Below, piece after piece: positions 1,347-29,227 of a stretch of 47,044 nucleotides of DNA; position 1 is the stretch's first letter, and each line of letters starts with the position of its first letter. The notes beneath the pieces were generated by a model. That model was given only the letters and a program-made list of their open reading frames with translations. It did not search any database and was not told the origin of the DNA. Origin of the DNA: Chiloscyllium plagiosum (lineage: Eukaryota); the NCBI RefSeq assembly GCF_004010195.1, contig NC_057746.1:9057631-9104674 (forward strand). The letters run 5' to 3'. The position numbers were made by a program, and so were the translations under genes.

Positions 1347-1595
1347 ACTCTCACACCTTGCAGTATCGCTTCCTCTGTAACTACCAACTCCCGGAGCTGC
1401 CGGATCTCTCGGTGGTCGGCATGCTGGATGACCTTCAGACCGAGTACTATGACAGCTCCCTCAAGCGGACCGAACCCAGGCAGCAATGGATGACCGCCGG
1501 GGTCCCGGAAGTGTACTGGCTGGAGCAGACCAAGGTGGCTGATACAATTCAAACGCACATCTTCAGGAAAATCGCTCCGTTTGTCACCATGTTCG
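1347..1595 (+). CDS. MHC class I-like heavy chain, alpha1-domain exon
   Basis: Acceptor cctttcctcAG|1347 and donor G|GTGCGT at 1596; 249 nt, phase 1/1. Translates (D)SHTLQYRFLCNYQLPELPDLSVVGMLDDLQTEYYDSSLKRTEPRQQWMTAGVPEVYWLEQTKVADTIQTHIFRKIAPFVTMF, with class I alpha1 motifs SHxLxY, VGxxDD, YDS, EPRxxWM and YW. Confidence 0.93.
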
Positions 1596-1973
1596 GTGCG
1601 TCACGTTGGACCTACTCTCTGCTCAAACAGAACGCGGTTGGCATGATCAAGGGTTCATTGCTGAGGAAGGGGGCAGTTAGAGGGGGATCCGCACCTTTCC
1701 GGTTACAGATTTGAAAAAGGAAATATGACAACGCCAACTTGTATTTGTGTAACACCTTTAATTTGATTTGATTGGATTTATTATTGTCACATGTACAGCG
1801 AAAAGTTTTGTTTTGCGTGCAGTACATGCAGACCATACCTTATAAAACTGCGTAAAGGTCATAGAGGACAGCCAAGAAATAGTGTTAAGTCTGCAGAGGA
1901 GGTGTACAAGGTCCTCATTAAATCCCAAAGTCTGATAACTGTCTGTAATGTATTGGAATGTCCCAAGGTGCTG

Positions 1974-2310
1974 ATAGAATCCCGACAGGCCATTCAGCCC
2001 ATCAAGTCTGCACTGATCCTTCAAAGAGCATCTCACCCAGAGCCCCCCCCCATTCCCCAACATATTCCCATAACCCCACATTTGCTGTGGCTAACCCCAC
2101 CTCGCCTGCACATCCCTGGACACTCTGGGCAATTTCGCCTGGCCAATCTGTTTCACCGGCACATCTTTGGACTGTGGGAGGGAACCCACACACACACACG
2201 GTTGGGGCAGGGGTGTGATCGTGCAAACACCACAGAGGCAGTCACCCCCACGGGCTGGAATCGAACCCAGGCCCCTGGTGCTGTCAGTGCTACCCACTGA
2301 GCCACTGTGG
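1974..2310 (-). mobile_element. tRNA-derived SINE (shark HE1-like)
   Basis: Reverse strand has the A box gtggctcagtgg, B box ggttcgattcc and the family body. Confidence 0.8.
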
Positions 2311-2875
2311 TTCACAGGAAAAGGGGGCAGCAAACAAAACCTGACAACGAGTCGCCAAACCTTTGTCAAAGCATCGTTTGGAAGAGGCATCTTAAAGCCC
2401 GGAAAGTGAGGTGGAGAGGCAGGGCAGGAGTGGGAAGGGGCTCCAGAGTTTGGGTCCATGTGCCATTGAAGGCACAGCCACCACTTATGGAGCCGTCATG
2501 ATCAGACACACGCGAAAGCTCAGAAAGGTCTGACTCTTGCACCAGGGAGCCAGAGTTTAAAAATGAGGGGTCAGCTATTTTGACAGATATGAGGGAAAAA
2601 TGTTTCTCTTGGAGGGTTGTGTGTCTTTGGAATTCCCTTCCTCAAAATCGCCCGGTTGGAAATGTGGGTGTTGAGCAATATAGCGACAGATAAAGAAAAG
2701 GTGTGAAAACATTGATAGCACTCCAGGTACAAAAGCCATCAGGCCCAGGTGGGATTCCTCCTAGATTGCTGAGGGAGGAAAGGGAACAAAGTGTTGAGCC
2801 GTTGACAGAAATTTTCCAGGGTTAGACCCAAGGATTACAAATCTGACACTGTCATTTATAAAAGGGTGAAGGAAA

Positions 2876-3179
2876 GGGCAGCAGGGTGGCTCAGTGGTTA
2901 GCACTGCTGCCTCACATCACCAGGGACCTAGGTTCGATTCCAGCCTCGGGCAACTGTGTGGAGTTTGCACATTCTCCCCGTGTCTGTGTGGGTTTGCTCT
3001 GGTTTCCTCCCACAGACCAAAGATGTGCCGATCAGGTGAATTGGCCATGCTAAATTGCCCATAGTGTTAGGTGCATTAGTCAGAGGGAAATGAGTCTGGG
3101 TGGGTTACTCTCCGGAGGATCGGTGTGGACTGGTTGGTCCTAAGGGCCTGTTTCCACACTGTAGGGAATCTAATCTAAT
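2876..3179 (+). mobile_element. tRNA-derived SINE inserted into a CR1 fragment
   Basis: gtggctcagtggttagcact...ggttcgattcc head and tgtagggaatctaatctaat tail. Confidence 0.9.
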
Positions 3180-3878
3180 AACCCAGGAAACAATAGGACT
3201 GTCAGCTTCACATCGATAGTGCAGAAACCATTACATGTGGTATGATAAGAAAAATTAATTCATACATGGTGTTGTCAAGGGAAGGTCATGTGTGACAAAT
3301 TAATTGAGTTCTGTGATGGAGATGATAGACGCAATGAATGGTGTCGTGGATGGTGTACGTTTGGACTTTGAGAAAACATCAGATATGCCACATGGTAGGT
3401 TCCTTAGCAACTTAGAAATGTTTGGGATTGATATGTCCCTGGCCACGTGGCTAAAAGATAGGGAATGAAGGGCATAAATGGGCATTTCGTAGTCTAGAGG
3501 TGAGTTGAAAATGATGCCCTTGAGAGAATGCAAAAGGAGATTTGACAGAATGGTAACAGGATTGAAGGATTTTAGGTAAAACATAAGGTGAGAGAGATTG
3601 GGCCAATTCACCTTGGAGCTGAGAAGATTAAAAGGTGACCTTATTGAGGTGTTCAAAATTATGAAAGTTTTGAACGGGTAAAGAAGGATATTTTGTTTCC
3701 ACAAGTTGATATGTCAGTAACTAGGGGTTACAAGATTATCAGCAAGCGAGCTAGGAGTGAGATGAGGAAAAACGTCTTTACTCAGAGAGTTGTTAGGATT
3801 TGGAATGCACTGCCTGGGAGAGTGGTAGAAGTGGATTCCTTTTCAAAAGGGAGCTGGATATATATATAATTTATACAA

Positions 3879-4120
3879 TCGTAGAATCCCGACAGTGTGG
3901 AGGCAGGCCATTCGGCCCTTCGACCCTCCAAAAAGCAAGCAGCCCACAACCCTTGGCATTTCCCATGGCAAATCCACCTCGCCTGCACATCTTTGTCCTG
4001 TTGGAAGAAACCCGAGCACCTGGAGGAAAGCCACCCAGAGGCGGGGAGAAAGTGGGACAGTTGCCCAAGGGTGGAATCGAACCCGGATCCCTGGCACATG
4101 AGGCTGCAGTGCTAACTACA
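3879..4120 (-). mobile_element. tRNA-derived SINE
   Basis: Reverse-complement match to the 2876 SINE family (B box at about 4073-4083). Confidence 0.8.
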
Positions 4121-4736
4121 ATTTAGAGGGCTATGGAGATAGGGCTGGAGAATGGGACCCACTGGGTAGCTTTTTCAATGGGTCGAATGGCCTCCCTCTG
4201 TGCACGGTAACATTTGATGACAGTAAAAGTCAATGGATGCAGAATCGTTTGATATTTTTTAAGGCACAGGTTTGTAGATTCTTGAATACTAAGGGGATCG
4301 GGGGACGTGCAGGAATATAGAGGTGAGGTTGGAATCAGATTGGCCATGACTTTATTTAGCGGTGGGGCAGGCCTGAAGAGGTCCATGTAACCTACTGCTG
4401 TTCCATACTCATATGTTTGGAATAACTGAGGGTTGATACCTCTAACATGGGATTACAGAGACAGACCAAGGCAATTTGAAGACATTATAGAGATTTTAAA
4501 ATCAAGCTTGACCAGGAGTAAGTGTGTGTCAGCAAGGATTCAGGTGGTAATGAGAGACGGGACTTCCTGCACATAGGGCATAGGCCACATCTCTCCAAAA
4601 TGCTTGCCTCATTCCAGACAGTCCTTAAAACTCAACCCTTTCATCAACCCAATCTAATGTCTTTCAAAGTGCTAACTTTTCTTTTATAATGGCCCTGCAC
4701 AGCTCCTATGTCATATGAAAGGTGTTCAGCACCTCA

Positions 4737-5064
4737 ATAGAATCCCTACAGTATGGAAACAGGCCCTTCAGTCCAACAAGTCCACACCGACCCTCTGAAG
4801 AGTAACCCACACAGACACACTCCCCTACATTTCCCCTGACTATTGTACCTAACCTACACATCCCTGAACTCTATAGGTGATTCAGCCATGCTAAATTGCC
4901 CAATCTGCACATCTTTGGATTGTGGGTGGAAACCAAAGCAAATCCGCACATACACAGGGAGAATGTGCAAACTCCACTCAGACAGTTCCCCCAAGGCTGG
5001 AATCGAACCAAGGTCCCTAGCACAGTGCGGCAGCAGTGCTAACCACTGAGCCACTGTGCCGCCC
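4737..5064 (-). mobile_element. tRNA-derived SINE
   Basis: Reverse complement ggcggcacagtggctcagtggttagcactgctg...ggttcgattcc...tgtagggattcta. Confidence 0.88.
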
Positions 5065-5263
5065 GAAATCAAGTAGGACGTGGCTCAGCATTTGGTGAGA
5101 TACTAGAGAAATAGTGCATCCACAGCCTCTTATTGGGATCTTCACCTCTGTATCGTTCATTGCTGCTTAGCATACACTGTATAGGTCTGGGGAGCCACCA
5201 AATGCAGATGTGAATGGAGAGTTCTGTAATTAAAGTATAGTTGATCTTGTTGATCATTCCCAG

Positions 5264-5533
5264 GTATCACATACATCCAGGGTGTCCTGGGATGCACAGT
5301 GGAAAATGACCAAAGCACCAGGATGTTCATAAAGATAAACGTCAATGAGTTTGGAGATATTGAATGTGACATGGTCACAGTGCGTTGCTGGGGGACGGGT
5401 GTACTTACTTTTCTGACTGCAGAGTTTGAAGACGTCATCAACGATCTCACTTTTATCAAGTTGCTGAACACCAGTTGTGTTGAAGGACTCTACACCACAC
5501 TTCGAGCTGGTAAAACAGCCCTGCAAAGAAAAG
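5264..5533 (+). CDS. MHC class I-like heavy chain, alpha2-domain exon
   Basis: Acceptor ttcccAG|5264; 270 nt, phase 1/1; ends AAAG|GCAAGT (GC donor). Translates (G)ITYIQGVLGCTVENDQSTRMFIKINVNEFGDIECDMVTVRCWGTGVLTFLTAEFEDVINDLTFIKLLNTSCVEGLYTTLRAGKTALQRK. Has QxxxGC (C101-equivalent), CVExL (C164-equivalent) and the GKxxLQRK ending. Confidence 0.9.
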
Positions 5534-5596
5534 GCAAGTGGACCAGTACGACTAACTGCTGAGACCGACCAAAGCCGGGTGCTGAGTGTAATCCGC

Positions 5597-6095
5597 ACCA
5601 GGATTCCAATTATGATCCAAATCCGATTTCCGAGTGTGATACAGATCAGGATTATGATTATGATCCAAATCCGATTTCAGAGTGTGATCCAGATCAGGAT
5701 TCCAATTGTGATCCAAATCCGATTTCTGGGATTGTGATCCTGATCAGGATTCTGATTGTGAACCAAATCCGATTTCCCAGTGTGATCCAGATCAGGATTC
5801 GAATTGTGATCCCAATCTGATTTCCCAGTGTTTTCCAGATCATGATTCCAATTGTGATCCCAATCCGATTTCCCAGTGTGATCCAGATCAGGATTCCGAT
5901 TGTGATCCAAATCCGACTTCCCAGTGTGATCTGGTTTCTGACTGTGACTAAATCCAGTGTCCAATGTAATCCAGATCTGGATTCTGAGTGTGATCCGTCC
6001 GGACGCTGACTGCGAACCAAATCCGATTTCTGGGTGTGTAATCCAAATCGGGATTCTGAACGTAATCTGTTCGGTGAATAATGCAATACATTCCG
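5597..6095. repeat. Intronic minisatellite, 48-bp unit made of two related 24-bp halves
   Basis: Repeats of gtgatccaaatccgatttcccagt + gtgatccagatcaggattccaatt, decaying at the right end. Confidence 0.9.
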
Positions 6096-6136
6096 AAAAA
6101 GAGTGCCTTTCACTTTGGTTTCTGGTTCTTCCTCAG

Positions 6137-6412
6137 TTGCTCCCCAGGTGCTGGTTTTCAGTTTGAACTCCAATGCAGAGATGTCCACACCTCTCCTGTG
6201 CCTCATCACTGCCTTCTATCCCCGTGCCATCAGTGCCATGTGGCTGCACAATGGAGTGCCAGTTTCAGAGGACCTCACAGTGATGGTTCTGCCAAACCAT
6301 GATGCCACATACAGAATGGAGATCCTCATTGACATCAAGAACAATGACCCAAGTGGCTACTCCTGCCAGGTTCAGCATCGCAGCTTGTCCAAGACACTGA
6401 CAGTAATGTCTG
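6137..6412 (+). CDS. MHC class I-like heavy chain, alpha3 Ig C1-set exon
   Basis: Acceptor ttcttcctcAG|6137 and donor G|GTAAGG at 6413; 276 nt, phase 1/1. Translates (V)APQVLVF...LLCLITAFYPRAISAMWLHNG...VLPNHDATYRM...YSCQVQHRSL..., with C1-set motifs CxxxxFYP, W, LPNxDxTY and YxCxVxHxSL. Confidence 0.95.
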
Positions 6413-6839
6413 GTAAGGTATCCCAGAATGATGTTGCACCAAAAATGGCCATTTGAGTCATGTTGCCTGTGAAAAAATGGGCAAACTCCGCCTGCTCCTT
6501 TCACTCTTATTCCTGCTTGTGCATTCATCCCTTTAAGCAATTCCTTTTTGAAAGCCATCTGCTTCCTCCAAACATTCATTCCTGAAAACGACAGCACATT
6601 GTGGAAACAAAAATCTCCTCAGCTCTCCTTGGCCCTCTTAGCAAATCATTTTAAACCTGTCTCCTCTGGCCAGCAATTCTCCTGCCAATGGAGGGGAAAG
6701 TAATGTTTCTTTTTAAATTCCTGATAAATTGTCGGCCAATGAAATAGAAGGAGAGCTGGGAAAAACTTAGGGATGGGCGAAAGTCTAACTGTCAAGGTTA
6801 ACCAATGACAAGCTGGGAAGTCACTGAAACAACAAACAC

Positions 6840-7182
6840 AGCCAGCACAATGGCTCAGTGGTTAGTAGGAACAGCACCAGGGACCCAGGTTCGATTCCAG
6901 CCTCGGACGATTGTCTGTGTGGAATTTGCACCTTCTCCCTGTGTCTGCATGGGCTTCCTCTGGGTGCTATAATATCCCTTCACAATCCAAAGATGTGCAG
7001 GTTACATGGATTGGCCTTGCTAAATTGCTCATAGTGTCAGGAGGTGTGCGGGTTAGGTGGATTAGCCATGGGGAATGCAGGATTACAGAAATGGGAGGTG
7101 GGTCTGGGTGGGATGCCCTTCGAAGGGTTGGTGTGGACTCAATGGGCAGAATGGCTGGTTCACCCTGTAGGGATTCTATGAT
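6840..7182 (+). mobile_element. tRNA-derived SINE
   Basis: tggctcagtggttag...ggttcgattccag head and tgtagggattctatga tail. Confidence 0.88.
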
Positions 7183-7510
7183 TTGATTCGGATCCACCAA
7201 CAGTGGCTGACTTCAGGGCTCAAATGCTCCCTTACTGGTCTGCTGTGTTCAGGACTTCAGTTCAAAAAGCACGGAGAGTCAGTTTGATCGAGGTGATGTC
7301 ATTCAGGTCGTACGTTTAGGTTTTCAAAAGGAATTGGACAAAAAACCTGGTTCTGTGCTGTATGACTCTATAAGTAGATTCCTTCAACTTAAAAGTGCCT
7401 AAGGTTAGAAGAAATAGTGACATAGAATAAAGAATGTGATAACAAATGGGGTTGGCATAGACTCGTGTATTGTAGACAATTCTAGACACTTCCAGAAAAG
7501 TATAAAGATT

Positions 7511-8256
7511 CAAGATGTAAGTTTGCTTGCTGAGCTGGAAGGTTCATTTTCAGACATTTTATCACCCTACTAGGTAACATCATCAGTGAGCCTCCGGTGA
7601 CCCACTTTCTATTTATGTGTTTAGGTTTCCTTAGGTTGGTGGTGTCATTTCCTGTGGTGATGTCATCTGCTATGGAGATGTCATTTCCTGTTCTTTTCCT
7701 CAGTGAGTGGTAAATGGGGTCCAGGTCAATGTGTTTGTTAATAGAGTTCCAGCTGGAATGCCATGCTTCTGGGAATTCTTTTGCGTGTCTCTGTTTGGCT
7801 TGATCCAAGGATGGATGTTTTGTCCCAGTCAAAGTGGTGTTCTTCCTCATCTATATGTAAGGACACTAGTATCCACGATCCCTACTATCCTTACATACAG
7901 ATGAGAAAGGACATCTCTTCGTCTGGGACAACACATCCACCCTAGGACAAGCCAAACAGTGACATGCATAAGAATTCCTAGGAGCATGGTATTCCAACCA
8001 GAACTCATCAGCAAACACATAGAGTTAGACCCCATTTACCACCCACTGAGGAAAAGAACAGGAAATGACATCACCAACCTAAGGAAACCTAAACACATAA
8101 ATAGAAAGTGGGTCACTAACACCAGTGCTTCACCAGAGGCTCACTGATGTTACCTAGTAGGGTGACAAAATGTCTGAAAATGAACCTTCCAGCTCAGCGA
8201 GCAAACTTACATCCAGAACCTCAATCTGAGCTACAAATCTTCTCCAAACTCACTAG
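7511..8256. mobile_element. Penelope-like element 3' end with inverted duplication (fold-back), 11-bp TSD
   Basis: About 7513-7865 is the reverse complement of about 7890-8213 (HIxLDPIYHxLRKRTG on both strands). GTATAAAGATT flanks it at 7500-7510 and 8257-8267. Confidence 0.8.
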
Positions 8257-9352
8257 GTATAAAGATTTGAGAAAGGCTACAGAGGAGGCTTGTCAGACAT
8301 TGTCTCACCCTATGTAATGAAGAGAAATTGGGAATGTCAGGATGGTACGCTGTGAAACAGTGGGGTTCATCATAGGCGACAGAGTCGAAGTTGACTTAGA
8401 ATCAAAGCAAAATATTGCAGATGCTGGAGACCTGAACTAAAAACAGACAATGCTCAAGAAAAACAACAAGTCTGACAGTACCTGCGGAGAGAAGACATAA
8501 AGTTAATGTTGCAGTATGACTCTTCTTCAAAACTGCAAGCTGTTACAAAACAGTTTAGATTTTGATACTTTTAACGGAGGCAGAGGAGGGGTGAGAGGGC
8601 AGAGACCAAATGCCTAAGACATAAGGGTCATTAATAGTGAATAAAGGAAGGGATGTAAAATGGAGGCAAATTAAAGTGTGAAGGGGAGAGAAGGGGTCCT
8701 CTCTACTAACTGCAAAGAAAACAAGACACAAAAGAGATTGGAGGATAGACGTAACGTGGTCAGGTACCGAAGTTGATGAATTGGTTATTGAGAACAGCGA
8801 CCTTGGATACAGCCATCCTGACTCCCAACCCTTAATTCTAATGACCACCCATTGGCAAACCAAGGAGAGTGATTTTAATGGCATGGGGGAGTAACACAGC
8901 CCGGCAAAGCCCTTGCTTCTCAAAACCTGCTCTACCCCCCTCCTCACTACCTGAGCATGTAGTATTACGGTGAAATCCACCTAGCCTTTACCCAAAGGTT
9001 GCCAATAGACAATGGAATGCCACTTATCACAGATTGTGTGGAATTGCATTCCTTAAAGATGAATCCCACTGGGAACTGATGGGAAATCCAAGGCCGATAA
9101 CTCTGGAACTCACTCAGAGGACTCTCGTGTCATGCAGGCTTAGGGAAATTCCCGAGCCCGTTGGAAGCTGTCCAGTTCACCCGCTGCAAATCGATACCAA
9201 AGGAAATGCAGCCGGGATGAAGAAACAGGGAGCTCTCATAATGCTGGCATAATCAAACGCCCTGTGGTTTGGGCTGTGGAGGAAGGTGTGTCTGTTTGTA
9301 TTTCACTGCCACTGTCCTCTAATGGTTTGTGTGTGTTGTATCTGGCACACAG

Positions 9353-9438
9353 GAGTCGGTCGTGTCAGTCACAGTATTTGGCCTGGCCCAGCGCTGTGCC
9401 TATTCACCATGTTGGCAATGGCGGTAGGCGCGGTGTAG
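9353..9438 (+). CDS. MHC class I-like heavy chain, terminal hydrophobic (TM or GPI-signal-like) coding exon; exon continues to 9480
   Basis: Acceptor ggcacacAG|9353. A phase-1 join to alpha3 gives GVGRVSHSIWPGPALCLFTMLAMAVGAV then TAG (9436-9438). Strong donor CAG|GTGAGT at 9481. Only this frame is hydrophobic. Confidence 0.72.
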
Positions 9439-9588
9439 TGGACAAGTGCAACGAGGAGTGTGGGAAAGGTGCGAGCTCAGGTGAGTAAAGACCTGCTTCC
9501 CGGTCTGACATCCCATTCAACATCTAAAAGCAAGTGATAATAAGTGACAATATTCTATTTCTAATCACCTCCTTCTTCTCTTTCCCAG

Positions 9589-9780
9589 AGAAGCATTAAT
9601 TGCTGAGGCGTTGCTCGTCTCTCGCCAGTTGCCCAGCGCTGAATCCATGACTTCGAGGCTATTTCATGAAAGCAAACTTGAACTGTTTCAATGTCACCTC
9701 TAACACGACCATCCACTGGACTTTCCTGATTTGCATTGCTTATTTCTTTCTAATAAATTTTGAAATGTTTGTTAAGTTTC
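9589..9780 (+). other. Probable last (3' UTR) exon of the MHC class I-like gene
   Basis: Branch-like CTAAT at 9561, long pyrimidine tract and cccAG at 9587-9588 close a 108-nt intron starting at 9481. The 3' end is approximate. Confidence 0.6.
9752..9757 (+). promoter_or_regulatory. Polyadenylation signal AATAAA of the MHC class I-like gene
   Basis: AATAAA followed by T/GT-rich sequence, about 160 nt into the putative last exon. Confidence 0.55.
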
Positions 9781-10673: not shown

Positions 10674-13600
10674 TGTTATGGTCCAGGTCAGACCCCTTCA
10701 AAACATGTCAAGAAGATAGCCCAAGACCCTCACTTTTCTAGCTGTTTGTAGAGTGGATATTCCAGGAGAGATACAGCTGGTCAAATCACTCAGTTTTCAA
10801 TGAAACAGAATTTATTTACAGACTACTGAATGAAGCAAGAAAAAGAAAACAGAATTTAGAATAACAGCTATTTCAGAACCCAACTGACTCGATAACCCCC
10901 AAAACTTAACAAAGAGCTTTTCTTACAACATTTCATAAACACACCCCTTGGCAAAAAGGCAAAATCAAACCCAGGTTCTGACAGGGGAGAGAGAGAGAGA
11001 GAGAGTTTGCAGGAATCATTAGATGAAAAATGGAATCTCTTCTTTTCCCAATATTTCTCGGGGTCCCCAGCTAAAACTCAACCAAGCTAGCGAAATCCCT
11101 GAACTGGGAGAACCGGCCAATTCCCTTGTTTGTACAATTGCTTTTAAAACAAACCAGAAAAGCCTTTTCTCTGATTGTTGCCTGAGGCAGTATCTGTTAG
11201 CCATAATCAAAGTGGCCAAAACCAGACAAAGTGGAACCCCTGCCTTTTACAACCGCTTTTGAGAGAAAAAAAAACAAAAGGACAACATAACCTTGTTAAA
11301 TGAGCAGCATTGTCGCACCATTCCCTTAAAAAAAGACCCATCAATATTCAAAGATGACTTCATTTTAACACCTCTTAATCTTACACTGTTAGTATACTGC
11401 AACACACCTGCATTAAATTGACTACAACCATGCAAACATGCATTACTGCGTTCTAAATCAGTCCATTTACTCCTGCCAACAAATGCCTCCATTTTCATCC
11501 TAGTCTCAAACATTCGTCAGCAATCACATTTTCTTGTCTCACCCCATGTACAATTCTCAAATTGAATGACTGTAATAACAAGCTCCATCTAAGCAGTCTG
11601 GAATTTTTGTCCTTAAATTTCCCCAAAGCCTTCAATGGGTCTCAGACACATTGCTGGCAACATGAATGCTGAAATGTTGTAACGCCAACACCAAGTTCAA
11701 TGTCTCCAGCTCAACTGATGAACATTTCTGCTGATGAGTGTTCAATTTCCTGGAGAAATACCCGATAGGTCTTACTATCTTCTCGTTGTCTTCCTGTAAG
11801 AGCACAGCACAACACCCACATCACTCGCATTGATAGCCACCTTGAATGGCTTTGTATAATTAGTTGTGGCTAACACTGGTGCAGTGGTTAACACTGTTTT
11901 CAGGCTGTCAAATGCCTTCTGATAATTCGCTGTCCACTGCAACTTTCTTGCCTTTCTTTAGTAATTCAGTGAGTGGAACAGCCACACTGCGAAAATTTCC
12001 AATAACATCCAGTCAATCCTCAGAACGGTAGTACTGCTCTGTTTGTCGATGGTATGGAAAACTGCCCAATTACCTGTGTTTTTGCACCCTGTGGGGCCAT
12101 TTGTCCATCTCCAATAACGTGGCTCAGAAAGGTGACTTGGGCTTTGGCAAATTCACTCTTCACTCAACCCTGCTTTCCAAAGTTGATTGAACAATTCTGA
12201 TAAATGTTGCAAATGTGCCTTCCATGTGTGATGAAAACTCACCAGGTCATCTGTATATATATTACAATTGGGTAATCCGGCAATGATGTTATTGGTTAGT
12301 TTCTGAAATGTGACTGGCGCATTTTTCATGTCAAATGGCGTGACTTTAAATTGATACGGTCCATTCGATGTTACGAAAGGCAAAATTGTCTTTACTGTTT
12401 CGGACAAAGGTATCTGCCAGTATCCTCTTAGTAAGTCCAACTTAGAAATATATGTTGCTTGTCCCCCCTTTTCTCCAGTCTTCCAAATTTGGAATCAAGT
12501 ATAAATCAGTTTTTGTAACCACATCGATTTTGCGATGGTCCACACATAATCTGGGTACCATCTGGTTTTGGCATCATTATTTTGGGTGAGCTCCAGTCAC
12601 TGCAACTTACTTTGATTATGTCGTCTTGGAGCGTGCATTCAATCTCCTTTTGAACCTGTGCCAACTTTAGAGGGTTAAGCCTATAAGGATGTTGCTTAAT
12701 TGGAACAGCATCTTCTACATCTACATCATGCATAATTCAGTCAGTACTTCCCAGCTTGTTGCCACATATATCCCCATGCAATAGCAATAACTCTTTCAGG
12801 TCATTTCAATTTTCCTCTGGAAGATAATTCAATAATTCCATCACAATTTTTGACAACTTCCTCATTGTCCAATTTAATTTGAAGAATGTCCAATTCAGAA
12901 TCCTCTGGACTTGGTTCTTCCCGCTGTGTTGTAACCAGCAACATCTTCTCCTTTTGCTGTCCTTCCCTGTCAAAGTACCTTTTGAGTATATTCACACAAC
13001 AGCCTCCTTATCAAGTCGTTTACCTCACTGAATCTCTATTCAACTTGATAAGATCCACTCAACCTTGGTTTTAAATGTTCACCTATTACTGAGGATAGCA
13101 TGGTGGCTCAGTGGTTAGCACTGCTGCTGCTTCAGAGTACTAGGGGCCTGTGTTCGATTCCTGTCTCGGACAACTATCTGTGTGGAGTTTGCACATTCTC
13201 CCCATGTCTATGTGGATTTTCTCCGGGTGCTCCGGTTTCCTCCCACAGTCCAAAAGATGTGCAGGTCAGGTGAATTGACCATGCTAAATTGCCCATAGTG
13301 TTAGGTGCATTCGTCAGGGGTAAATACAGGTTAGAGGAATGGGTTACTCTTTGGAGAGTCAGTGTGGACTTGTTGGGCTGAAGGGTCTGTTTCCGTACTG
13401 TAGGGAATCTAATCTAATACCAAAACTTGAAGTAACACTTTATCTCTGATAGCAAAATTGCGAGTTTTGATTTCTTGTCTGCTTCCTGTTTCCTTGTATG
13501 CTGTGATATTTCTAAATACCATCGAGCCAACTCCCCCACTCTATTTATTCATTCCCTAAAATCTGACAGATAGTCCAAATACGTGGTCTCTGAATTCTGA

Positions 13601-15965
13601 TTCACTAATTTCTCTTTAATCAATTCTAGTGGTCCTCTCACTTCATGCCCCAAAACTAATTCAAATGGATCAATTCAGTTGGTGATTGTAATAAGTACAA
13701 ATGGAATTCCTTTATCCCAACCATTGGAACAGTTTTGACTGTCAGCCTGACTGTATGTCTGATACCATTTTTCTAGCACTCCCTGCATGCTATCTGGGAG
13801 ATTCAAATTGTTTTATGCCTAGGTTGTCCATAACCTCCTTGAATAATTTTGATGTAAAATTTGACTCTTCATCTAATTGTATTTCTGTGGATAGTCCTTA
13901 TCTAGTGAAAGATTTGAGCAACTTCTCTCCAATCCTTCAAGCTGATGATATTGTGTAATGGAATGGCCTCTGGAAATCTAGTGGATACATCCATTATTGT
14001 TAACAATACCGATTCCCACTTTATGTTTAGGTAGAGGACCTACGCAATCAATTAAGACCCTTATAAAAGGTTCCTCAAATGCAGGGATAGCTATTAAAAG
14101 TTCTGGTTTTATTCCTGCCTGTATTTTTCCAGTTATCTGACATGTTTGACATATCTGGCAAAATTCAACGACATCCTTGTGCCGTCCAGGTCAGTAAACA
14201 TGTTTTTGTATTTTAGCTTGAGTTTTCCTTACCCCGCGATGACCTTCCACTGGTAGTTTATGTGCTGTCTGCAACACCTCCTTTCTATAACCCTACTGAC
14301 AATACTACTTGATAAACTGCTGCCTCTTTCTCATCTGCCTGAATGGTCTCTATTCCCTCATTACGACATCATTTTAAAGATAATAGCAGTCAGGGATATA
14401 CCTAGATTCTTCTTCCATGTTTGCCTTTTGATACAATTACTCTAGTTTCTCCCCTTTCTGTTGTAATTCAGTTAATTTTTCTGAGCTAAAGATGTCCACT
14501 TTGTCATCCATTGGCTCCTGTTTTGTCTCAACCATTTGATCTAACAGGGTCTCTGCCAATTCCACTTCTACTTCCTTATCTGTACTCTTTGATCTCTCCT
14601 GTTTCAACTGGTGACTTTGTGACCTCATTACCACACAGTCAGAATATGCTTCCTCTAATACCTCAGTTGTCTGCTTTTTTCCACTGGCATTTCAACCACA
14701 GTAGGCAGCACTCCTAGCTGTGAACCAGCTACATCATTAGCAAAGACAAATTGTATTCCTGGAGCTGAGAGTTTCTCCAGTACTCTTACCACGACTTCTC
14801 CACTCTGCACTGGATACTTGAACCTCATTTGCATAATTGAGCACTTCCTGTTCCACCATGAATTCCACTTAGTAGCACTTTTTCCGGTGATAGTCCTTCA
14901 GAGGTACGCATCTCCACATCTCTCAACATCAAAAGTTGAGAAGATCCTGTGTCGCTTAACATTGTAACTTTATGACCTGCAGCTCCTGGCCTATGTGAGT
15001 AAAGTTTACATTCACAAGTATATGGTTTAGGAAGATCTTGCACTTCCTCCTTAGCTAACCTCTGACCCGGTTGTACATTCTGATGCAGTTGTCCAGCCTC
15101 CACTGTCTTTCCATTACCACTCCAACAAAATTCACTGGCTTATCCTGTTTTCCTAGCACTGTTCATACCCTACCAACACTGTGATTTCATGTAACCTACT
15201 TTATTGCAGTGAAAACACCAGAGCTTTTTAACTTCTCCGTCCCCTTCAAGGGCTTCTTTTTTACCCTATGGTTAATTATCCCTATGATCTTCACCGAGCT
15301 CTGCTTTTCCCTTTCCACATGAGGATTTCTGTTTTCTGAAGTTTCTATCACTCATGCATTGAAATTAAGATTGGAAGCCAAACTTTGATTTATGGACCAA
15401 CTCATAATCATTAGCCATTTCAGCCACTAATTGTGCCGTTTCAACTCTCTACTCTTCCTCATGAGTTCACACTACCTCAGGAACTGAAATTTTGAACTAC
15501 TTCAAAATAATTATCTCTCGAACAGTGTCATATGTTTGCTCTATTTTTAATGCCCTTTTCCGCCTGTTAAAATTACTTTGATCCTTTGAAACTCAATGTA
15601 GATTTGACCAGGGTTCCTCCTCAGATTCCTGAAATGTTGTCTGCAGGCTTCTGGCACAAGCTCCTGTGCACTTACAATGGTGACCTTCACCTCCTCATAC
15701 ACCCCAGGTACCTACTCTGATAGTGATGCAAGTACCTCATTAGCTCTACCTACAACAAAACCCACATAGTCACTGGCCATTTCATTTGTTTAGCCACTTC
15801 CTCAAATGAGATGAAAAAGACTTCTATATCCTTCTCATCAAATTTATGCAATGCTTGGATATATTTAAACAGATTTCCCACCAGGCCTTCGGCCATGGTG
15901 GGCTTGCTCATCCTCACTCACTTCCTCACTAAGCTTACCATCTCCCTTCATCTCCACCCTTCAAA
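10674..15965 (-). mobile_element. Degenerate Gmr1-clade Gypsy LTR retrotransposon (3' LTR 10674-11317; 5' LTR missing)
   Basis: Minus-strand order: SCAN-like gag (PEACRQHFRNL...EIIIL, about 15400-15700), zinc knuckle CFHCNKVGY (about 15200), protease DTGS (about 14950), integrase (GVRKT...CQTCQ, IDCVGPLP; about 13500-14260), RT (PIKQHPYR, DLLRGYWQ, YTDDL; about 12100-12730), RNase H (about 11600-11870). Purine-rich tract next to the TG...CA LTR. Many stops and frameshifts. Confidence 0.85.
13093..13418 (+). mobile_element. tRNA-derived SINE inserted into the LTR element
   Basis: Same head and aatctaatctaat tail as the 2876 copy. Confidence 0.9.
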
Positions 15966-15969: not shown

Positions 15970-16840
15970 GCACTCTCTCAGTACTGACCCTCTGACAGTG
16001 TGGCACTCCCTCAGTACTGATCCTTTGACAGTGCGGCACTCCCTCAGTACTGAACCTCTGACAGTGCGGCATTCCCCAGTACTGACCCTCTGACAGTGTA
16101 GCATGCCCTAAGTACTGGCCCTCTGACAGTGCGGCACTCCCTCAGTACTGAACCTCTGACAGTGCGCACTCCCTCAGTACTGACCTTCTGACAGTGCGGC
16201 ATTCCCCAGTACTGACCCTCTGACAGTGCAGCATGCCCTAAGCACTGGCCCTCTGACAGTACGAGAATCCCTCAGTACTGACCCTGTGACAGTGTGCCAA
16301 TCCCTCAGTACTGACTCTCTAACGGTGCGGCTCTCCCTCCATACAGACCTTCTGACTGTGCAGCACTCCCTCAGTACTGACCCTCTGACAGTGCGGCACT
16401 CCCTCGGTACTGACCCTCTGACAGTGCAGCACTCCTTCAGTACTGACGATGTGACAGTGCGGCATTCCCTCAGTACTGACCCACTGACATTACCACACTC
16501 CCTCAGTGCTGACCCTCTGACAGTATGGCATTCCCTCAGTACTGACCATCTAGCAGTGTGGCACTCCCTCAGTATTGACCCTCACACTGGGTGTTTTCCT
16601 CAGCTGAGCTGAATTGTTACCATTCAGGAGTTACTTAAAATGATTGCTGTCACCCTCTGACAGTGCGGCACTCCCTCAGTACTGACTCTCTGATGGTGTA
16701 GCACTCCCTCAGTACTGACCCATTGACAGTTTCACCACTCCCTCAGTACTGACCCTCTGACAGTGCTGCACTCCCTCAGTACTGACTCTCTGACAGTGCG
16801 GTGTCCCTCAGTACTGACCCTCTGACAGTGCAGCACTACC
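15970..16840. repeat. 33-bp tandem satellite (two blocks, about 15970-16590 and 16652-16840)
   Basis: Unit cactccctcagtactgaccctctgacagtgcgg; gives the 11-aa periodic ORF STDPLTVRHSL. Confidence 0.95.
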
Positions 16841-17039
16841 TCTGTACAGATCTCTGTACAGATGTTGCCAGACCTGGTGTACCTCTCCGGTACACTCAAT
16901 GATTGTTTGAGATTTCCCGAGTCCACCATTCCTGGTGTTCGTTATTACATTATTACACACTTCTCGAGCAGCTGGAGCTTGAACCTGGGCCTCCTGGTTA
17001 AATGATTCACACTACCGCTGCACCACTGGGCTCTCTTAG

Positions 17040-18650: not shown

Positions 18651-19280
18651 TTTTTTTAAATTTCAAAATTGTACTTTAATCATAAAAAAAATCTTTGTAT
18701 ATATACGTTGTCACCGATGCAGTTTTGTTCTGGACAGTATCATGTCAAGTAAACAAACCAACTTTGGAGTTTGACTTTATCCCAAGAAACCAAAAGCATT
18801 TCTTACACATGCAAGATCATATTTACATACACTGAGACACGAGGAGGGTCCAATAACTGAATGAACCCACAATTAAGTTCAATTAGGAAGACCTCAGGCA
18901 GTGGTCTTTCCCAATTGAGCCCTGCCCCAAGCTCACTGACTAAGATATTTTTTATTTCAAAAGTATACTTTATCCCAAAAGATCACTTTGCATATATACA
19001 CATTATCTGAAAAGCATTTCAGTTCTGTACATTTGCATATCAAATAAATAAACAAAACAGTGGATTTTGATTTTAACCAAAAAGCCAAAGCCCTCTCTTA
19101 CATGTACAATACTTTTATTGACATATATTTGAGGCACTGGGGGGTGGGTCCGATAACCGAACAGGACTCCCATTTACCTTCAACAGGAAGACCTCAGACA
19201 ATGATCTTTCCCAACTGTGCTTTGACAGCAAATGCCCAACGTTTAGTGTGTCCCTCCACAGGTAGACCTGGAACTTGGAA
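18651..19280 (-). mobile_element. Two head-to-tail 3' ends of an L1/Tx1-like LINE (about 18651-18932 and 18948-19280)
   Basis: Two mutually similar segments, each beginning with a T-tract (minus-strand polyA). The minus strand encodes SKFQVYLWRDTL and AVKAQLGKIIV*, resembling a Tx1-like ORF2 C-terminus. Confidence 0.7.
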
Positions 19281-22195
19281 GTCTGCAACACTCGGTCTGC
19301 AACACAAGTGCCAGTCTGCAACAGTCAGTCTGCTACACAAGTGCCAGTTTGCAATATTTGGTNNNNNNNNNNNNNNNNNNNNNNNNNNNNNACACAAGTG
19401 CCAGTCTGTAATACTCGGTCTGCTACATAAGTGCCAGTCTGCAACACTCGGTCTGCTACACAAGTACCAGTCTACAACAGTCAGTCTGTAACACAAGTGT
19501 CAGCCTGCAACAGTCAGTCTGCTACACAAGTGTCAGTCTGTGACAGTCAGTCTGTAACACAAGTGCCAGTCTGCAACAGTCAGTCTGCAACACAAGTACC
19601 AGTCTACAACAGTCAGTCTGTAACACAAGTGCCAGTCTGCAACACTCGGTCTGCTACATAAGTGCCAGTCTGCAACAGTCAGTCTGCAACACAAGTGCCA
19701 GTCTGCAACAGTCAGTCTGCTACACAAGTGTCAGTCTGCAACACTCGGTCAGCAACACAAGTGCCAGTCTGCAACAGTCAGTCTGTAAAACAAGTGCCAT
19801 TCTGTAATACTCGGTCTACTACAAAAGTGCCAGTCTGCAACAGTCAGTCTGCAACACAAGTGCCAGTCTGCAACAGTCAGTCTGCAACACAAGTGCCAGT
19901 CTGCAACAGTCAGTCTGCTACACAAGTGCCAGTCTGCAACAGTCAGTCTGTAACACAAGTGCCATTCTGTAATACTCGGTCTACTACACAAGTGCCAGTC
20001 TGGAACAGTCAGTCTGTAACACACGTGCCAGTCTGCAACAGTCAGTCTGCTACACAAGTGCCAGTCTGGAACAGTCAGTCTGTAACACACGTGCCAGTCT
20101 GCAACAGTCAGTCTGCTACACAAGTACCAGTCTACAACAGTCAGTCTGCAACAGTCAGTCTGCAACACAAGTACCTGTCTGCAACAGTCAGTCTGTAACA
20201 CAAGTGCCAATCTACAACACTCGGTCTGCAACGCATGTGCCAGTCTACAACAGTCAGTCTGCAACACAAGTACCAGTCTGCAACAGTCAGTCTGTAACAC
20301 AAGTGCCAGTCTGCAACAGTCAGTCTGTAACACAAGTGCCAGTCTGCAACAGTCAGTCTGAAACACAAGTGCCAGTCTGCAACACTCGTTCAGCAACACA
20401 AGTGTCAGTCTGCAACAGTCAGTCTGTAACTCAAGTGCCAGTCTGTAATACTCGGTCTGCAACGCATGTGCCAGTCTGCAACAGTCAGTTTGTAACACAA
20501 GTGCCAGTCTGCAACACTCGGTCTGCAACGCATGTGCCAGTCTACAACAGTCAGTCTGTAACACAAGTACCAGTCTGCAACAGACAGTCTGTAACACAAG
20601 TGCCAGTCTGCAACAGGCTGTCTGTAACACACGTGCCAGTCTGCAACAGTCAGTCTGTAACACACGTGCTAGTCTGCAACAGTCAGTCTGTAACACAAGT
20701 GCAGTCTGTAATACTCTGTCTGCAACGCATGTGCCAGTCTACAACAGTCAGTCTGTAACACAAGTGACAGTCTGCAACAGTCAGTCTGTGACACAAGTGC
20801 CAGTCTGCAACAGTCAGTCTGTAACACAAGTGCCAGTCTCTAATACTCAGTCTGCAACACATGTGCCAGTCTGCAACAGTCAGTCTGCAACACAAGAGCC
20901 AGTCTGCAACAGTCAGTCTGTAACACAAGTGCCAGACTGTAATACTCAGTCTGCAACACATGTGCCAGTCTGCAACAGTCAGTCTGCAACACAAGAGCCA
21001 GTCTGCAACAGTCAGTCTGTAACACAAGTGCCAGTCTGCAACAGTCAATCTGCTACACAAATGCCAGTCTGCAACACTCAGTCTGCTACACAAGTGCCAG
21101 TCTGCAACAGTCAGTCTGTAACACAAGTGCCAGTCTGCAACAGTCTGTCTGCAACACAAGTGCCAGTCTGCAACACTTGGTCTGCAACACAAGTGCCAGT
21201 CTACAACAGTCAGTTTGCTACAAAAGTGCCAGTCTGCAACAGTCAGTCTGTGACACAAGTGCCATTCTGTAATAGTCAGTCTGTAACACAAGTGCCAGTC
21301 TGCAACAGTCTGTCTGCAACACAAGTGCCAGTCTGTAACAGTCTGTCTGCAACACAAGTGCCAGTCTGGAACAGTCAGTCTGTAACACACGTGCCAGTCT
21401 GCAACAGTCAGTCTGCTACACAAGTGCCAGTCTGCAACAGTTAGTCTGCTACAAAAGTGCCAGTCTGCAACAGTTAGTCTGCAACACAAGTGCCAGTCTG
21501 CAACAGTCAGTCTGTGACACAAGTGCCATTCTGTAATACTCGGTCTACTACAAAAGTGCCAGTCTGCAAAACTCAGTCTGTAACACAAGTGCCAGTCTAC
21601 AACAGTCAGTCTGCTACACAAGTGACAGTCTACAACAGTCAGTCTGCAACACAAGTGTCAGTCTGTAACAGTCAGTCTGCTACACAAGTGCCAGTCTGCA
21701 ACACTCGGTCTGCAACACAAGTGCCAGTCTGTAACACTCGGTCTGCAACACATGTGCCAGTCTACAACAGTCAGTCTGCTACACAAGTGCCAGTCTGCAA
21801 CAGTCAGTCTGCAACACAAGTGCCAGTCTGTAATACTCAGTCTACTACAAAAGTGCCAGTCTGCAACACTCAGTCTGCAACACAAGTGCCAGTCTGTAAC
21901 ACTTGGTCTGCTACACAAGTGCCAGTCTGCAACAGTCAGTCTGTAACACAAGTGCCAGTCTGCAACAGTCAATCTGCTACACAAGTGCCAGTCTGCAACA
22001 GTCAGTCTGTAACACAAGTGCCAGTCTGCAACACTTGGTCTGCTACACAAGTGCCAGTCTGCAACAGTCAGTCTGTAACACAAGTGCCAGTCTGCAACAG
22101 TCTGTCTGTAACACAAGTGCCAGTCTGCAACAGTCAGTCTGCTACACAAGTGCCAGTCTGCAACACTCGGTCTGTAACACAGGTGCCAGTCTGCA
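19281..22195. repeat. 33-bp tandem satellite, about 2.9 kb (roughly 88 units by length; contains a 29-N gap)
   Basis: Unit acacaagtgccagtctgcaacagtcagtctg(ct/ta/ca) with variant ...gcaacactcggtctg. Confidence 0.97.
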
Positions 22196-24133
22196 AAATT
22201 CAGTCAGGGTCAACTCTTCGTTAAGTGAGTGGGTCAGGACGTAGACAGCAATGTACCTGGTTTCTAGCCACAGTGTGGGGTCATTGTCACACCAATACTC
22301 CTTCATTATCATGTTGACACAATGGAGATTTTGTCAATCATCGTGAATATATGAACCTTCCATGCTCGTTTTAACAAGAGTTCACTTTTAAGCAGGGGGC
22401 GAGGTGTATGGAGTCTGTTTTTGAAGAGATGCTTGACCATTTCTGAATTATTTATTGGGCTGCTCCAGTATTCATGCCTTTATCCCACTAGGATTGAGAG
22501 GTGACATCTCTAAGAGTGAGGCTGCTGTCCTCCTTAATCCTTGCTAATCCATTCCCATCCTTTGGCCCTTCCCATCCAATATCATCTCCTCTACTGTCTG
22601 TGTCCCTCTAATAATGGGTATGTTTTATCAGAATCTGAAGTTTCAAGTTGAAATATTCCTCATGCTTTCCCTGACTCGGTTTAAATCTGACTTCCTGCTG
22701 TTGAGCCTCTGAGCATACTGCGTTCTCATTCCGAAAGCAAAACATGGGAAATCTGAAATAATAACAGGAAACATTCAGCGGGTCAGGCAGCATGTGTGGA
22801 GACATAAAAGGAGCCAGTGGGTGTTGGGGTTATGCAGGAAAGTGAAGTTGAGGTCACATTAGCTGTCATCTTACTGAATGGTGGATCAGGCTTGAGGGGC
22901 CAAATGGCCTAATCTTGCTCCTAATCCCTATGTTCAAATATATTATAGAGACAGTTTACATTTCCATTTGACAATCTCACATCACAACAGAGCTCACATT
23001 TTAAATTTAGTTTTCCTGCTATGCCTACACCACTGCATAGTGCTAATTCATCAGTTTTGTTTCAAGCTGGTGAATCTTTTGGTCACAAGTTGATTTTCCT
23101 GCTCTGAGCTCGACTTTCCTGTCACTTGTGAATCTCTCATCTTCCAGCTTGCAACTCGTGCCAGCTATTCGACTGTGGTAGGTCCGTCACTCATCATGTG
23201 GCTCCATACTCACTGACACACGATTCCCTCTCCCTCTTGTAGGGCAGCTAAGAGGTACCTGGAGTCTGGGCAAGCGTGGCTGCCTCTGCCCATTGCAGCA
23301 AGACTGAGGTAACCTGGAGGCAAGGGTTCAGTCGGGGGGGGGGAAGACATTGTGCCAAGGTCAGGTTGGTCTGTAGCCCCGAGAGTAAGTGGTTTCAGGT
23401 CAGAGCTGAGGTGAGACAAAACAAAGAGCAGGAAGGTTGAAAAACACAGGCAATTGCTTTAGAAATCCAAATTGGGAACCTGAGTCTGAATGGGTAACAG
23501 TTGATGAAAGAAGCCGCTGCCACTGTTCTGTATTGCAGTGATGTCCTCTGAAATTGCCTGAGATGTTCCTATATCTCGCAGGTTTCAGGCAGTATCCAGT
23601 GAAGCTGATGGATACAACCAAAAAGGGGGAAATTGCATTGACATAGCACCATTCGTGACCCTATGGTGAAAACATAAGACACCCACTCCCAATTCTAGCT
23701 CTTTCTCTCTCTCTCTCGTCCGCTTGAGACACGCATCATCCCCTGAATCCAGGCACTTCCCAACATTGGGTTCCCTTCCTCGGAAGATGTCCTATGAGTT
23801 TGGTCTCCCCGAGTCAGCATTGGGCTTGGAGTAAGGAGAGCTGCCTCCCAAAGCGGGCCTCAGAGAGTGTGAGAGCTTTGTAGTGGTGAGACAGGCCAGT
23901 TATAAAATCATACAAAGAACTTGGATAAGCACATGGATGATGATGGAATAGTGTCCGGGGCGGGGTGAGCTTAGATTAGTTCACAGGTCAGCAGAACATC
24001 GAGGGCTGAAGGGCCTGTACTGCGCTGTATTGTTCTATGTTCTATAACTACAGGTGCCAGAAATCGCTCTGAACAACAGTCACTGGACTTGAAATTTTAA
24101 CTCTGTTTTCTCTCTGCTGACCTGCTAGGTTTC

Positions 24134-26945: not shown

Positions 26946-27475
26946 TTAGAAACAACACAATTTAAGAGGGGCATCCTTTTTACCCACATTGTGCAACCCA
27001 GGATAGAAATAAGGGAAGAGATTCTCGGTGAACGTGTCAGTGAAGGTGTAGAGAACAGACATATCATCAGCGTTGTAAAAGGTCACCAGTCCGCCCTCAT
27101 AGTCCAGGTAAACTCCAATGCTCCTGGGTTTCACACTCGGACATAATGAATCAATGGCAGCTCCATATTCATTCTCATTTCTCAGCCACACAGCCCAGTA
27201 ACCATTCTCAGGACTTAATGTTACACATCCTTTCCTATTTGCAAACTCTCGAACTACACCCACATCCCAGTCAGTATTGTCCCCCACCTCCACCTCCCAG
27301 TAGTGTTTCCCTGAATTGAATCCCTGCGATCCCAGGACGCATGGAGCCGTGTCAAATCTCTCCGGATTACCTGGAAGCTCTAATACTGTCTCACTGTTTC
27401 TCACGCTGGTCAGGTCCTCAGACAGGATGAGGTTATGATGTGCTGTGTTTGGATCCAGGGTCAGTGAAACTGGAA
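26946..27475 (-). CDS. TRIM-B30.2 gene, terminal PRY-SPRY exon (zinc-binding protein A33/TRIM39-like)
   Basis: cccAG|TT CCA... Encodes [58 protein letters not shown] and LFPYFYP; stop at 26946-26948. Open frame throughout. Confidence 0.97.
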
Positions 27476-28687
27476 CTGGGTCAGAAGGAAAGATATCAGG
27501 TTAAATATTTTAGACAAAGGAAGGTGAACAGACACAGGTTAATATTATCTTACACCAGCCCATGTGTAAATACTGCAGATAAGAGACTGTGACAAATCTA
27601 TCTGCCAGACTCCAGTCTAGAACCAGAGGGCGTGGTCTGAGGATTTAAGACTGAGATGAAGAGAAATTTCTTTTTTCAGAGGGTGGTGAGCCTTTAGAAC
27701 TCCTTGCCACAGCTGTACAGGCACAATTTGTGCAGAATTTACAAGAATACTAATTCGAGGGGAATTCTAGCAAATTTCCCTGACAAGCGCAAGACAAAAA
27801 GTTGCAACCAAATGTGTCTTTTCTTGGCAACACTCCAGTTCCCTATGAACGTAAAGCTGGGTCCCCAGAACATCAGTTAAGTTTCCCAGATTAACAGTGG
27901 AGTGATAAGACCAGTGGGCCATCACCTCCCCTTACCGGTGATACTCTCAGGTCACCATCATAAACCGGACATCACTGCTATAATACTGCAGCTTAAATAA
28001 ATGCAAAACATAATTAATGTGTGTGAGAGACAGAAAGGAATGTTCACTAACACCATTAAAACTGTGAACCATCCCAAAGCAAACCATAAAGTGTTAATGA
28101 CCACATGACGCTGGCTCTATAGTATATATGTGTCAATGATCTGATGCTATTAATAAAGCCCTGCTCAGCAAGGTCATTTCATTTGATCATGTCAATTTTG
28201 CATTTATTTTTAGCTGGTCATATATTTCGGTGGATTGAATCCATTAACTAAATTCTCATGAAACCACAAGCATCAGCTTGAGTAAGTGCTCCATTGAGTC
28301 GGCCAAATCTGACCCGGTGTTTTAAGAATATGATTTTTCTGTAGAGTTTCTGCCCTGCTTCTGCTGAAGGTGGTGACTTAGACTCGGGTGATATTTCGAC
28401 AGCAGACTGGTCAGTAAGGTGAAATCCCTTTGTCAGGTCAGAGAGAAGTACAAGCAGACAGGGGACCAGGTCTAAACCTTGTCCAGTGAGTCACACTGGG
28501 AGGTCTGGCTGTCAGGGAAGAAGATCCTTTCTTTTCTGAATCACTCCAACCTGTGTCCCACAATCAGAACAGCCCCTCGCGTGTGGTCCTAGTGACCTCT
28601 ACCCATTAATGTGCAGCACCTTCCGAACGGTGGGAAGAGAGCAGGAAACTCCACAGGGGGTGGACACAAAGCTGTGGGGTCTCTTAC

Positions 28688-28908
28688 ATGGAGAGATGAT
28701 CTGTTTCATTTCCTTCCACACGGCGTAGAGTAATGGGCCTTGAAATCCCATGTAATTCTTTCTTGGAGATATTTGCATTTCTTCACCTTCATCTGCTGGA
28801 TATGCAATTTCTTCGAATACATATTCCTCCAAATCCTGGATTACATCATTGTCTTCTTCATCTTGTCCTCCATCTGCATTTCTCCCTTCCTCCCCTTTGT
28901 CCAGATAC
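28688..28908 (-). CDS. TRIM-B30.2 gene, linker exon (221 nt, acidic)
   Basis: aaacAG|G...T|GTAAGA, phase 2/1. Encodes YLDKGEEGRNADGGQDEEDNDVIQDLEEYVFEEIAYPADEGEEMQISPRKNYMGFQGPLLYAVWKEMKQIISP. GPLxYxVWKEM is typical of fish and amphibian A33/TRIM35/39/69-like proteins. Confidence 0.88.
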
Positions 28909-29001
28909 CTGTTTAAATGGGATTGATCTAATCACTCCCTGCAGGGTTTGAACTGTTTCCACCGTGTAAAAGCCACATGCGAGTAAGGATTAGATACTCA
29001 C

Positions 29002-29024
29002 ATTGCTTGCAATCCTTGCAGTTC
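29002..29024 (-). CDS. TRIM-B30.2 gene, 23-nt micro-exon
   Basis: ctgcAG|GAACTGCAAGGATTGCAAGCAAT|GTGAGT. The phase 0/2 23-nt exon is characteristic of class IV TRIMs and keeps the frame between its neighbours. Confidence 0.85.
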
Positions 29025-29227
29025 CTGCAGGATAGAAAATCAGAAACATGTTCATAGATATAATGGTGCTGTTCAGATGGCATTTATGTACAACCAGTAG
29101 TTTGAGTAAAAGGTGTACAGATCTGATGGGACATTAACTGAGAGTTTGCAGTGATCTGACAGCATGCTAGTTATTAAACCCCTTTTGCCCACAAACCACT
29201 GCCTTCCCCACTCTGATTAGACCTCAC

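Follow-up and report, generated by a model that had tools for sequence, protein, structure and literature searches.

UFA is an old non-classical lineage of class I genes of the major histocompatibility complex (MHC) in sharks and rays, and the nurse-shark protein is represented in the PDB by entry 8GM8, released on 2024-11-27 under the title 'Crystal structure of shark nonclassical MHC CLASS I, UFA'. Passages of one study (PMC10751288) place UFA in an MHC-Ib cluster with UDA and UEA, describe it as 'very similar to CD1' in its binding region and biophysical features on the basis of 'unpublished data', and call the orthology of UFA and CD1 hard to assess. Section 2.1 of another article (PMC12562908) mentions, as a 'pers. 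communication', that UFA binds lipids like those of CD1d, as suggested by a crystal structure and by mass spectrometry. In the present study, we analyzed a stretch of 47,044 nucleotides (nt) from the bamboo shark Chiloscyllium plagiosum (NC_057746.1, positions 9,057,631 to 9,104,674, forward strand), hereafter called the window, which carries a class I gene that an earlier note had described as non-classical. This gene is almost certainly the bamboo-shark orthologue of UFA, and its coding sequence ends without a cytoplasmic tail.

Several other class I-like proteins invite comparison. UGA (9CH4) is another shark lineage called CD1-like; unlike the window protein, it has a longer alpha1 with an N86-type sequon and keeps W133, and the identity between the two is 27%. 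CD1 is targeted to endosomes through a cytoplasmic tail on a transmembrane anchor, mouse Qa-2 is a class I-like protein held by a glycosylphosphatidylinositol (GPI) anchor, and the ULBPs lack alpha3. The window protein resembles CD1 (chicken CD1-1, 3JVG, and CD1-2, 3DBX; human CD1) and PROCR in possessing a hydrophobic groove without peptide anchors, but it has no residues beyond its terminal hydrophobic stretch, identity to CD1 is 22-26%, and CD1 reaches endosomes, as stated in a passage of PMC12562908. The ULBPs and MICA*008, which passages of PMC10316631 and PMC4410604 give as GPI-anchored precedents, share with it a class I fold, a hydrophobic end, and the lack of a tail; they are mammalian and distantly related, whereas the tail-less end of UFA appears to be common to the whole shark and ray lineage.

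Assignment of the bamboo-shark gene

When each domain of the window protein was searched alone against the PDB, chain A of 8GM8 was the best match for alpha1 (E-value 9e-30, followed by the UGA chain 9CH4_A at 5e-11 as the second-best), the only match at E<=1 for alpha2 (5e-26), and the best for alpha3 (1.5e-42, the next being 3e-15). Identity to nurse-shark UFA was 62% in alpha1, 57% in alpha2, and 78% in alpha3. The 8GM8 chain is the Ginglymostoma cirratum protein P0006 and, by eye, corresponds to the three Gcirratum_UFA rows (alpha1-alpha3) in supplemental file 10 of PMC10751288. The marks of the lineage in the published UFA rows are present in the window, namely, the deletion of Y84-N86, Cys126 together with Cys133, K115, and G122; K115 occurs in 22 and G122 in 21 of 24 family proteins.

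The direct orthologue is Chiloscyllium punctatum P0004, named 'hereditary hemochromatosis protein homolog', which is 94% identical over 263 ectodomain columns and has the same tail-less end; P0005 from the same species differs as a gene model with another start and end. The whole chain of P0004 matched 8GM8 at 2.5e-111 versus 1.5e-30 for UGA 9CH4. Chicken CD1 ranked fourth for the whole chain and was the best class I-type match after UFA for alpha3, with scores near those of other class I chains. A fold search also placed 8GM8 first (Z 23.5, root-mean-square deviation (rmsd) 6.2 A, 256 aligned residues, 65% identity), with the next entry at Z 18.4; identity was 27% for the 9CH4 entry and 20-27% for other solved class I chains.

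The 34 proteins retrieved in a profile search were 29 from sharks and rays at E<=1e-79 and, after them, 5 from teleosts at E>=2.6e-28; none of the 34 was from a chimaera. The tree comprised 29 ectodomain rows with 4 teleost proteins as the outgroup and left out P0005, P0017, P0020, P0031, P0178, and P0182; a representative search, which gave 1602 matches at E<=0.001, was not used for it. The window grouped with C. punctatum (support 100/99), this pair with nurse-shark UFA (98/100), and the family was separated from the teleost outgroup (100/100). The tree largely tracked shark and ray relationships, and the terminal branch of the window was 0.015.

We regard membership in UFA as virtually certain because the top PDB match of each domain is 8GM8 and the window clusters with nurse-shark UFA. 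What weighs against this assignment is that the tree contained no other shark class I lineage and no CD1, and that the family members are mostly automatic gene models. Since the tree was limited in this manner, the separation from UGA and UAA is read from the PDB scores and the published alignment. The earlier note had suggested that the gene may belong to an undescribed lineage, and some facts agree with that suggestion: the automatic names of the relatives (HFE-like, MR1-like, CD1d-like) are uninformative, and UFA in this sense is rarely named in the literature searched. It is nevertheless refuted by the title and fold match of 8GM8 and by the tree clade, which amount to the nesting inside a known lineage that the earlier note had itself said would remove the novelty. 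The per-domain identity of 57-78% to a named, crystallised UFA, when UGA reaches approximately 27% and the remaining class I chains of known structure 20-27%, leaves an undescribed lineage with a negligible probability. Membership in UGA was also considered and was rejected on the basis of 27% identity to 9CH4 and no alpha2 match to this entry at E<=1.

Regarding copy number, one copy per shark species was found among the matches of the profile search. UFA appears to have undergone expansion in Mobula, Hemitrygon, Hypanus, and Pristis, and the myliobatiform rays have two subclades. On the floor of the groove, many of the expansion proteins (P0015, P0169, P0171, P0172; P0022, P0170, P0173, P0174, P0176; P0014, P0019) carry Arg24 and Tyr9. 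Mobula birostris has 4 proteins and Hemitrygon akajei 5 full-length ones, which may include alleles or isoforms. A passage of PMC12562908 describes UFA and UGA as 'single- or low-copy', and our counts suggest that the copy numbers in some rays exceed this description. The UFA rows in the supplement of PMC10751288 bear names in the style of transcript assemblies, which speaks for expression of the lineage. A further lineage, UHA (Pamandae_UHA), is labelled in supplemental file 10 of PMC10751288 and is not discussed in the searched passages of PMC10751288 or PMC12562908.

Groove residues and a probable lipid ligand

HLA-A2 numbers were assigned via nurse-shark UFA, using the UFA/HLA-A2 alignment in the supplement of PMC10751288 together with pairwise alignments. 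Y7 and Y59 are present, Y84-N86 lie inside the deletion, and K146, W147, Y159, W167, and Y171 are replaced by E, F, L, G, and T, respectively; the earlier note had read these retentions and losses correctly. Its claim that T143 is lost depends on the register because the outcome hangs on the placement of a one-residue gap; in the published register, position 143 is Thr in the window and Ile in the nurse shark. Thus, among the anchors of classical class Ia (UAA), namely, Y7, Y59, R/Y84, T143, K146, W147, Y159, and Y171, two are kept, five are lost, and position 143 is register-dependent.

The lining of the groove is mainly hydrophobic (L5, Y7, F9, C11, L22, V24, V66, A67, I70, I74, I95, L99, I114, I116, I124, F147, F156, L159, and L160), and the floor residues named in the earlier note (L5, Y7, F9, C11, L22, and V24) keep their positions in HLA-A2 numbering. 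The spliced sequence also agrees with that note on an alpha1 domain of 83 codons without an N86 sequon and on NTS, right before the C164 equivalent, as the single sequon. An extra Cys pair substitutes L126 and W133, with C126 being found in 19 and C133 in 18 of the 24 family proteins; a C126-C133 disulfide is plausible because both Cys are on adjacent strands in the predicted model of P0004. As a separate observation, the window and P0004 have lost the alpha3 sequon NAT; of the 15 proteins scanned besides the window, 14 carry it.

Nurse-shark UFA shares the short alpha1, the extra alpha2 Cys pair, and the loss of the peptide-end anchors with the window protein. It differs in the floor, where the residues of the window are smaller (Y11 to C, M24 to V, V97 to G, and W99 to L) and may widen the pocket, and in having two sequons elsewhere instead of one near C164. 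The deposited nurse-shark chain stops at alpha3, and its C-terminus is not visible.

The reading of a non-classical class I protein whose groove is hydrophobic and of a non-peptide type, proposed in the earlier note as a possible presenter of lipids or small molecules, is supported, and its lipid part fits the second-hand reports on UFA lipids described above. We consider it very probable that the groove of UFA is filled with lipid, and the residues encoded in the window are compatible with such a ligand. Several points weigh against this reading. The reports themselves refer to 'unpublished data' and 'pers. communication'. The positions Q63, H73, K77, S163, and T171 face the groove and are polar. 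Arg occupies floor position 24 in 12 of 24 family proteins and, therefore, the pockets vary within the family. The residues Q115, A117, and D122, which contact beta2-microglobulin in classical class I, are changed in the window (Q115K, A117N, and D122G). Moreover, the predicted structure is that of P0004, and with a predicted local distance difference test score (pLDDT) of 71.5, a predicted template modelling score (pTM) of 0.60, and an rmsd of 6.2 A to 8GM8, it is too coarse for the pocket.

The tail-less C-terminus and membrane attachment

After alpha3, the window reads VGRVSHSIWPGPALCLFTMLAMAVGAV, followed by a stop codon. This end consists of small residues, a polar spacer, and a 16-residue hydrophobic stretch that runs up to the stop, with no cytoplasmic tail, and its last 15 residues have a mean hydropathy of 2.33 and zero charged residues. 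The end of the family proteins has the same arrangement: a patch of small residues and a short polar spacer lead into approximately 16 hydrophobic residues. When the C-terminal regions of the 27 named family proteins were compared in segments of 15 residues, hydrophobicity peaked in the last 15 residues in 23 of them; with P0017, which ends likewise, and with P0005 scored as a miss, 24 of 29 family proteins share the tail-less end, and these come from 12 genera (7 of sharks and 5 of rays). None of the 5 teleost class I outgroups shows it, since 19-53 residues follow their hydrophobic stretch.

The layout of a GPI-attachment signal, as defined in a passage of PMC10316631, comprises a small-residue attachment site, a hydrophobic C-terminal propeptide, and no tail, each of which is found in the window at the level of layout. 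UFA is, judging from this layout, quite probably a GPI-anchored protein. Against this stand the 5 of 29 family proteins in which the tail-less end is missing, namely, P0006 (an ectodomain construct), P0012 (a partial model), P0020 (198 aa), P0018 (isoform X2, with a hydrophilic end), and P0005 (the same exon in a different frame). The signal was also judged by layout only. Alternatively, the hydrophobic end may be a transmembrane anchor, short and tail-less, or the protein may be released to carry lipids in soluble form, as ZAG does, and GPI attachment being read from sequence layout alone, the helix drawn by the P0004 model at residues 306-318 (pLDDT <50), and the hydrophilic ends of P0018 and P0005 would agree with this alternative. 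We consider it unlikely because a stretch of approximately 16 residues finishes exactly at the C-terminus without basic stop-transfer residues and is preceded by a conserved small-residue patch and a polar spacer.

A statement that a shark class I protein is GPI-anchored was not found in the literature searched, which did not include the primary UFA paper, where one may stand. 'GPI' has 0 occurrences in PMC10751288, and in one of the papers matched by the search, GPI refers to LY6. Since the primary UFA paper was not found, this silence is weak evidence of novelty. The combined claim that the UFA lineage binds lipids, is held by a GPI anchor kept since before the split of sharks and rays, and that this anchor is unreported remains tentative, with the odds somewhat against it, because a quite probable anchor is combined with an approximately even chance that it is unreported.

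Taken together, a UFA orthologue that displays lipids from a GPI anchor is the probable and best explanation of the locus as a whole. The UFA chain would enter the endoplasmic reticulum (ER) via a leader encoded upstream of the window, and the alpha1-alpha2 platform would fold on alpha3, probably with beta2-microglobulin. The groove would take a self lipid in place of a TAP-delivered peptide. A transamidase would then cleave off the propeptide at the C-terminus, close to the small residues behind alpha3, and add the GPI anchor. Without a tail, the protein would lack a CD1-type endosomal sorting signal, and its lipids would thus come from the ER and Golgi or from the cell surface. On the cell surface, innate-like T cells or a germline-encoded receptor may be shown these lipids by UFA, and we lean modestly toward a lymphocyte receptor as its reader.

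It is also conceivable that the lipid is a structural filler, stabilizing the platform, and that UFA acts in the manner of EPCR or of a stress ligand, with a plasma protein or a natural killer (NK)-type receptor as its partner and not a lipid-reading T-cell receptor. The absence of a cytoplasmic tail and hence of endosomal sampling, the resemblance of the GPI-like end to those of the ULBPs and MICA*008, the changed beta2-microglobulin contact residues, and the single copy per shark species among the matches would all suit such a role. However, the full alpha3 domain is kept and is the most conserved one (mean top-residue frequency of 0.73 versus 0.63 and 0.55), and the stingray and manta expansion with altered floor residues fits ligand diversification, so that we judge this alternative to be improbable and favor lipid display to a lymphocyte receptor.

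Gene structure, surroundings, and meaning

The coordinates of the gene are summarized in Table 1. Splicing of the four coding exons gives an open chain of 292 codons plus a split first codon, i.e., 293 residues, with every junction in phase 1; the mature chain claimed in the earlier note was thus recovered, provided that a GC donor is used for alpha2. This donor has 1 mismatch to the consensus MAG/GTRAGT and yields the same alpha2/alpha3 junction as in P0004 and P0005. GT donors close to the end of alpha2 (5510, 5538, and 5546) were rejected as weak, with 3-4 mismatches, and the use of 5510 would remove 8 codons. The exons are not chance open frames because the four are 99, 89, 93, and 93% identical to C. 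punctatum P0004. In Pfam, alpha1 matched MHC_I (E 4e-6, under the curated cut-off) and alpha3 matched C1-set (E 2e-12), and a scan of alpha2 on its own gave no match. The GC donor, the missing cytoplasmic tail, and the exon of the 3' untranslated region (UTR) are absent from the earlier note.

Table 1. Features of the UFA gene in the window (positions are those of the window)
Feature	Position	Strand	Details
alpha1 exon	1347-1595	+	249 nt, 83 codons; without the Y84-N86 segment of classical class I
alpha2 exon	5264-5533	+	270 nt, 90 codons; carries the sole N-glycan sequon and the extra Cys pair at HLA-equivalent 126/133 beside C101/C164
GC donor of the GC-AG intron 5534-6136	5534-5539	+	non-canonical, AAG/GCAAGT
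alpha3 exon, immunoglobulin C1-set	6137-6412	+	276 nt, 92 codons
Membrane exon, coding part	9353-9438	+	whole exon 9353-9480; TAG at 9436-9438
Membrane exon, non-coding remainder	9439-9480	+	consensus donor at 9481
Last exon, 3' UTR	9589-~9780	+	AATAAA at 9752; acceptor read from sequence; 3' end approximate

A leader exon was not found in the window by a scan of positions 1-1346 for an ATG leading to a phase-1 donor, which gave only TG-repeat artefacts, or by tblastn with the leader of P0004; an exon-like stretch at 701-725 was rejected as a leader due to a stop in the required frame. Since P0004 has a 26-residue leader and none is present in the window, the leader exon most likely lies upstream of base 1. 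The description of the gene as 'apparently intact' is, therefore, demonstrable for the mature chain, which is open, and does not extend to the whole gene.

The limit for escape from nonsense-mediated decay is 50-55 nt. The TAG of the membrane exon is 42 nt upstream of the last junction, within this limit, and the reading frame is open beyond it up to the donor. If the GC donor and this stop were lesions, the bamboo-shark copy would be a pseudogene or a crippled allele, and the frame open after the TAG, the loss of the alpha3 sequon of most relatives, and the fact that neither a leader nor a transcript of the bamboo-shark locus was seen, which also counts against our interpretation of the gene, may be cited in its favor. 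However, the stop is not a nonsense lesion because its position is common to sharks and rays. Apart from the C of its GC, the donor fits the consensus in full, the four exons are all open and 89-99% identical to P0004, and the terminal branch is short. We consider a pseudogene to be very unlikely and retain the reading of an open UFA gene.

No second class I exon was found in the window by tblastn, and Rfam gave no match in it. The window is rich in remnants of short interspersed nuclear elements (SINEs), long interspersed nuclear elements (LINEs), and long terminal repeat (LTR) elements. A 48-bp tandem array occupies 5585-5931 in the intron after alpha2 (7.2 copies, 85% matches) and begins approximately 50 nt past the GC donor. 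A 33-bp minisatellite is located at 15970-16847 (26.5 copies), and another, unrelated 33-bp minisatellite at 19280-22205 (approximately 85 copies) has a 99-bp higher-order period and long open frames that are probably repeat by-products. A TRIM/B30.2-like gene on the minus strand (26946-30880) includes a PRY-SPRY exon, which occupies 26946-27500 (Pfam E 3e-24 and 4e-24), an acidic open reading frame (ORF) at 28599-28931, and, at 30520-30880, exons of coiled-coil-like sequence; no RING or B-box exons were located. The minus strand at approximately 11300-15900 is degenerate and LTR-retrotransposon-like, with RVT_1 at 12156-12494 (E 2e-15) and stops and frameshifts. LINE remnants at 32600-39100 include a GDSL/esterase-like ORF1 piece (33107-33622) and RVT_1 (37704-38666), and a further piece that resembles a retroelement, at 45300-46300, was without a match in Pfam.

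With this locus, a lineage that already has a name and a solved structure gains one more species. The list of orthologues can be used to correct annotation because the family carries misleading HFE-, MR1-, or CD1d-like labels in databases. UFA bears on the timing of the origin of lipid display in jawed vertebrates, and the tail-less, GPI-like end, the one trait of UFA that looks unreported, could help to separate an 'ancient CD1' from a protein that 'works like EPCR or a stress ligand'. If the GPI anchor is real, lipid loading and trafficking in UFA would be unlike those of CD1, and sharks and rays would display lipids without a tail-directed endosomal route.

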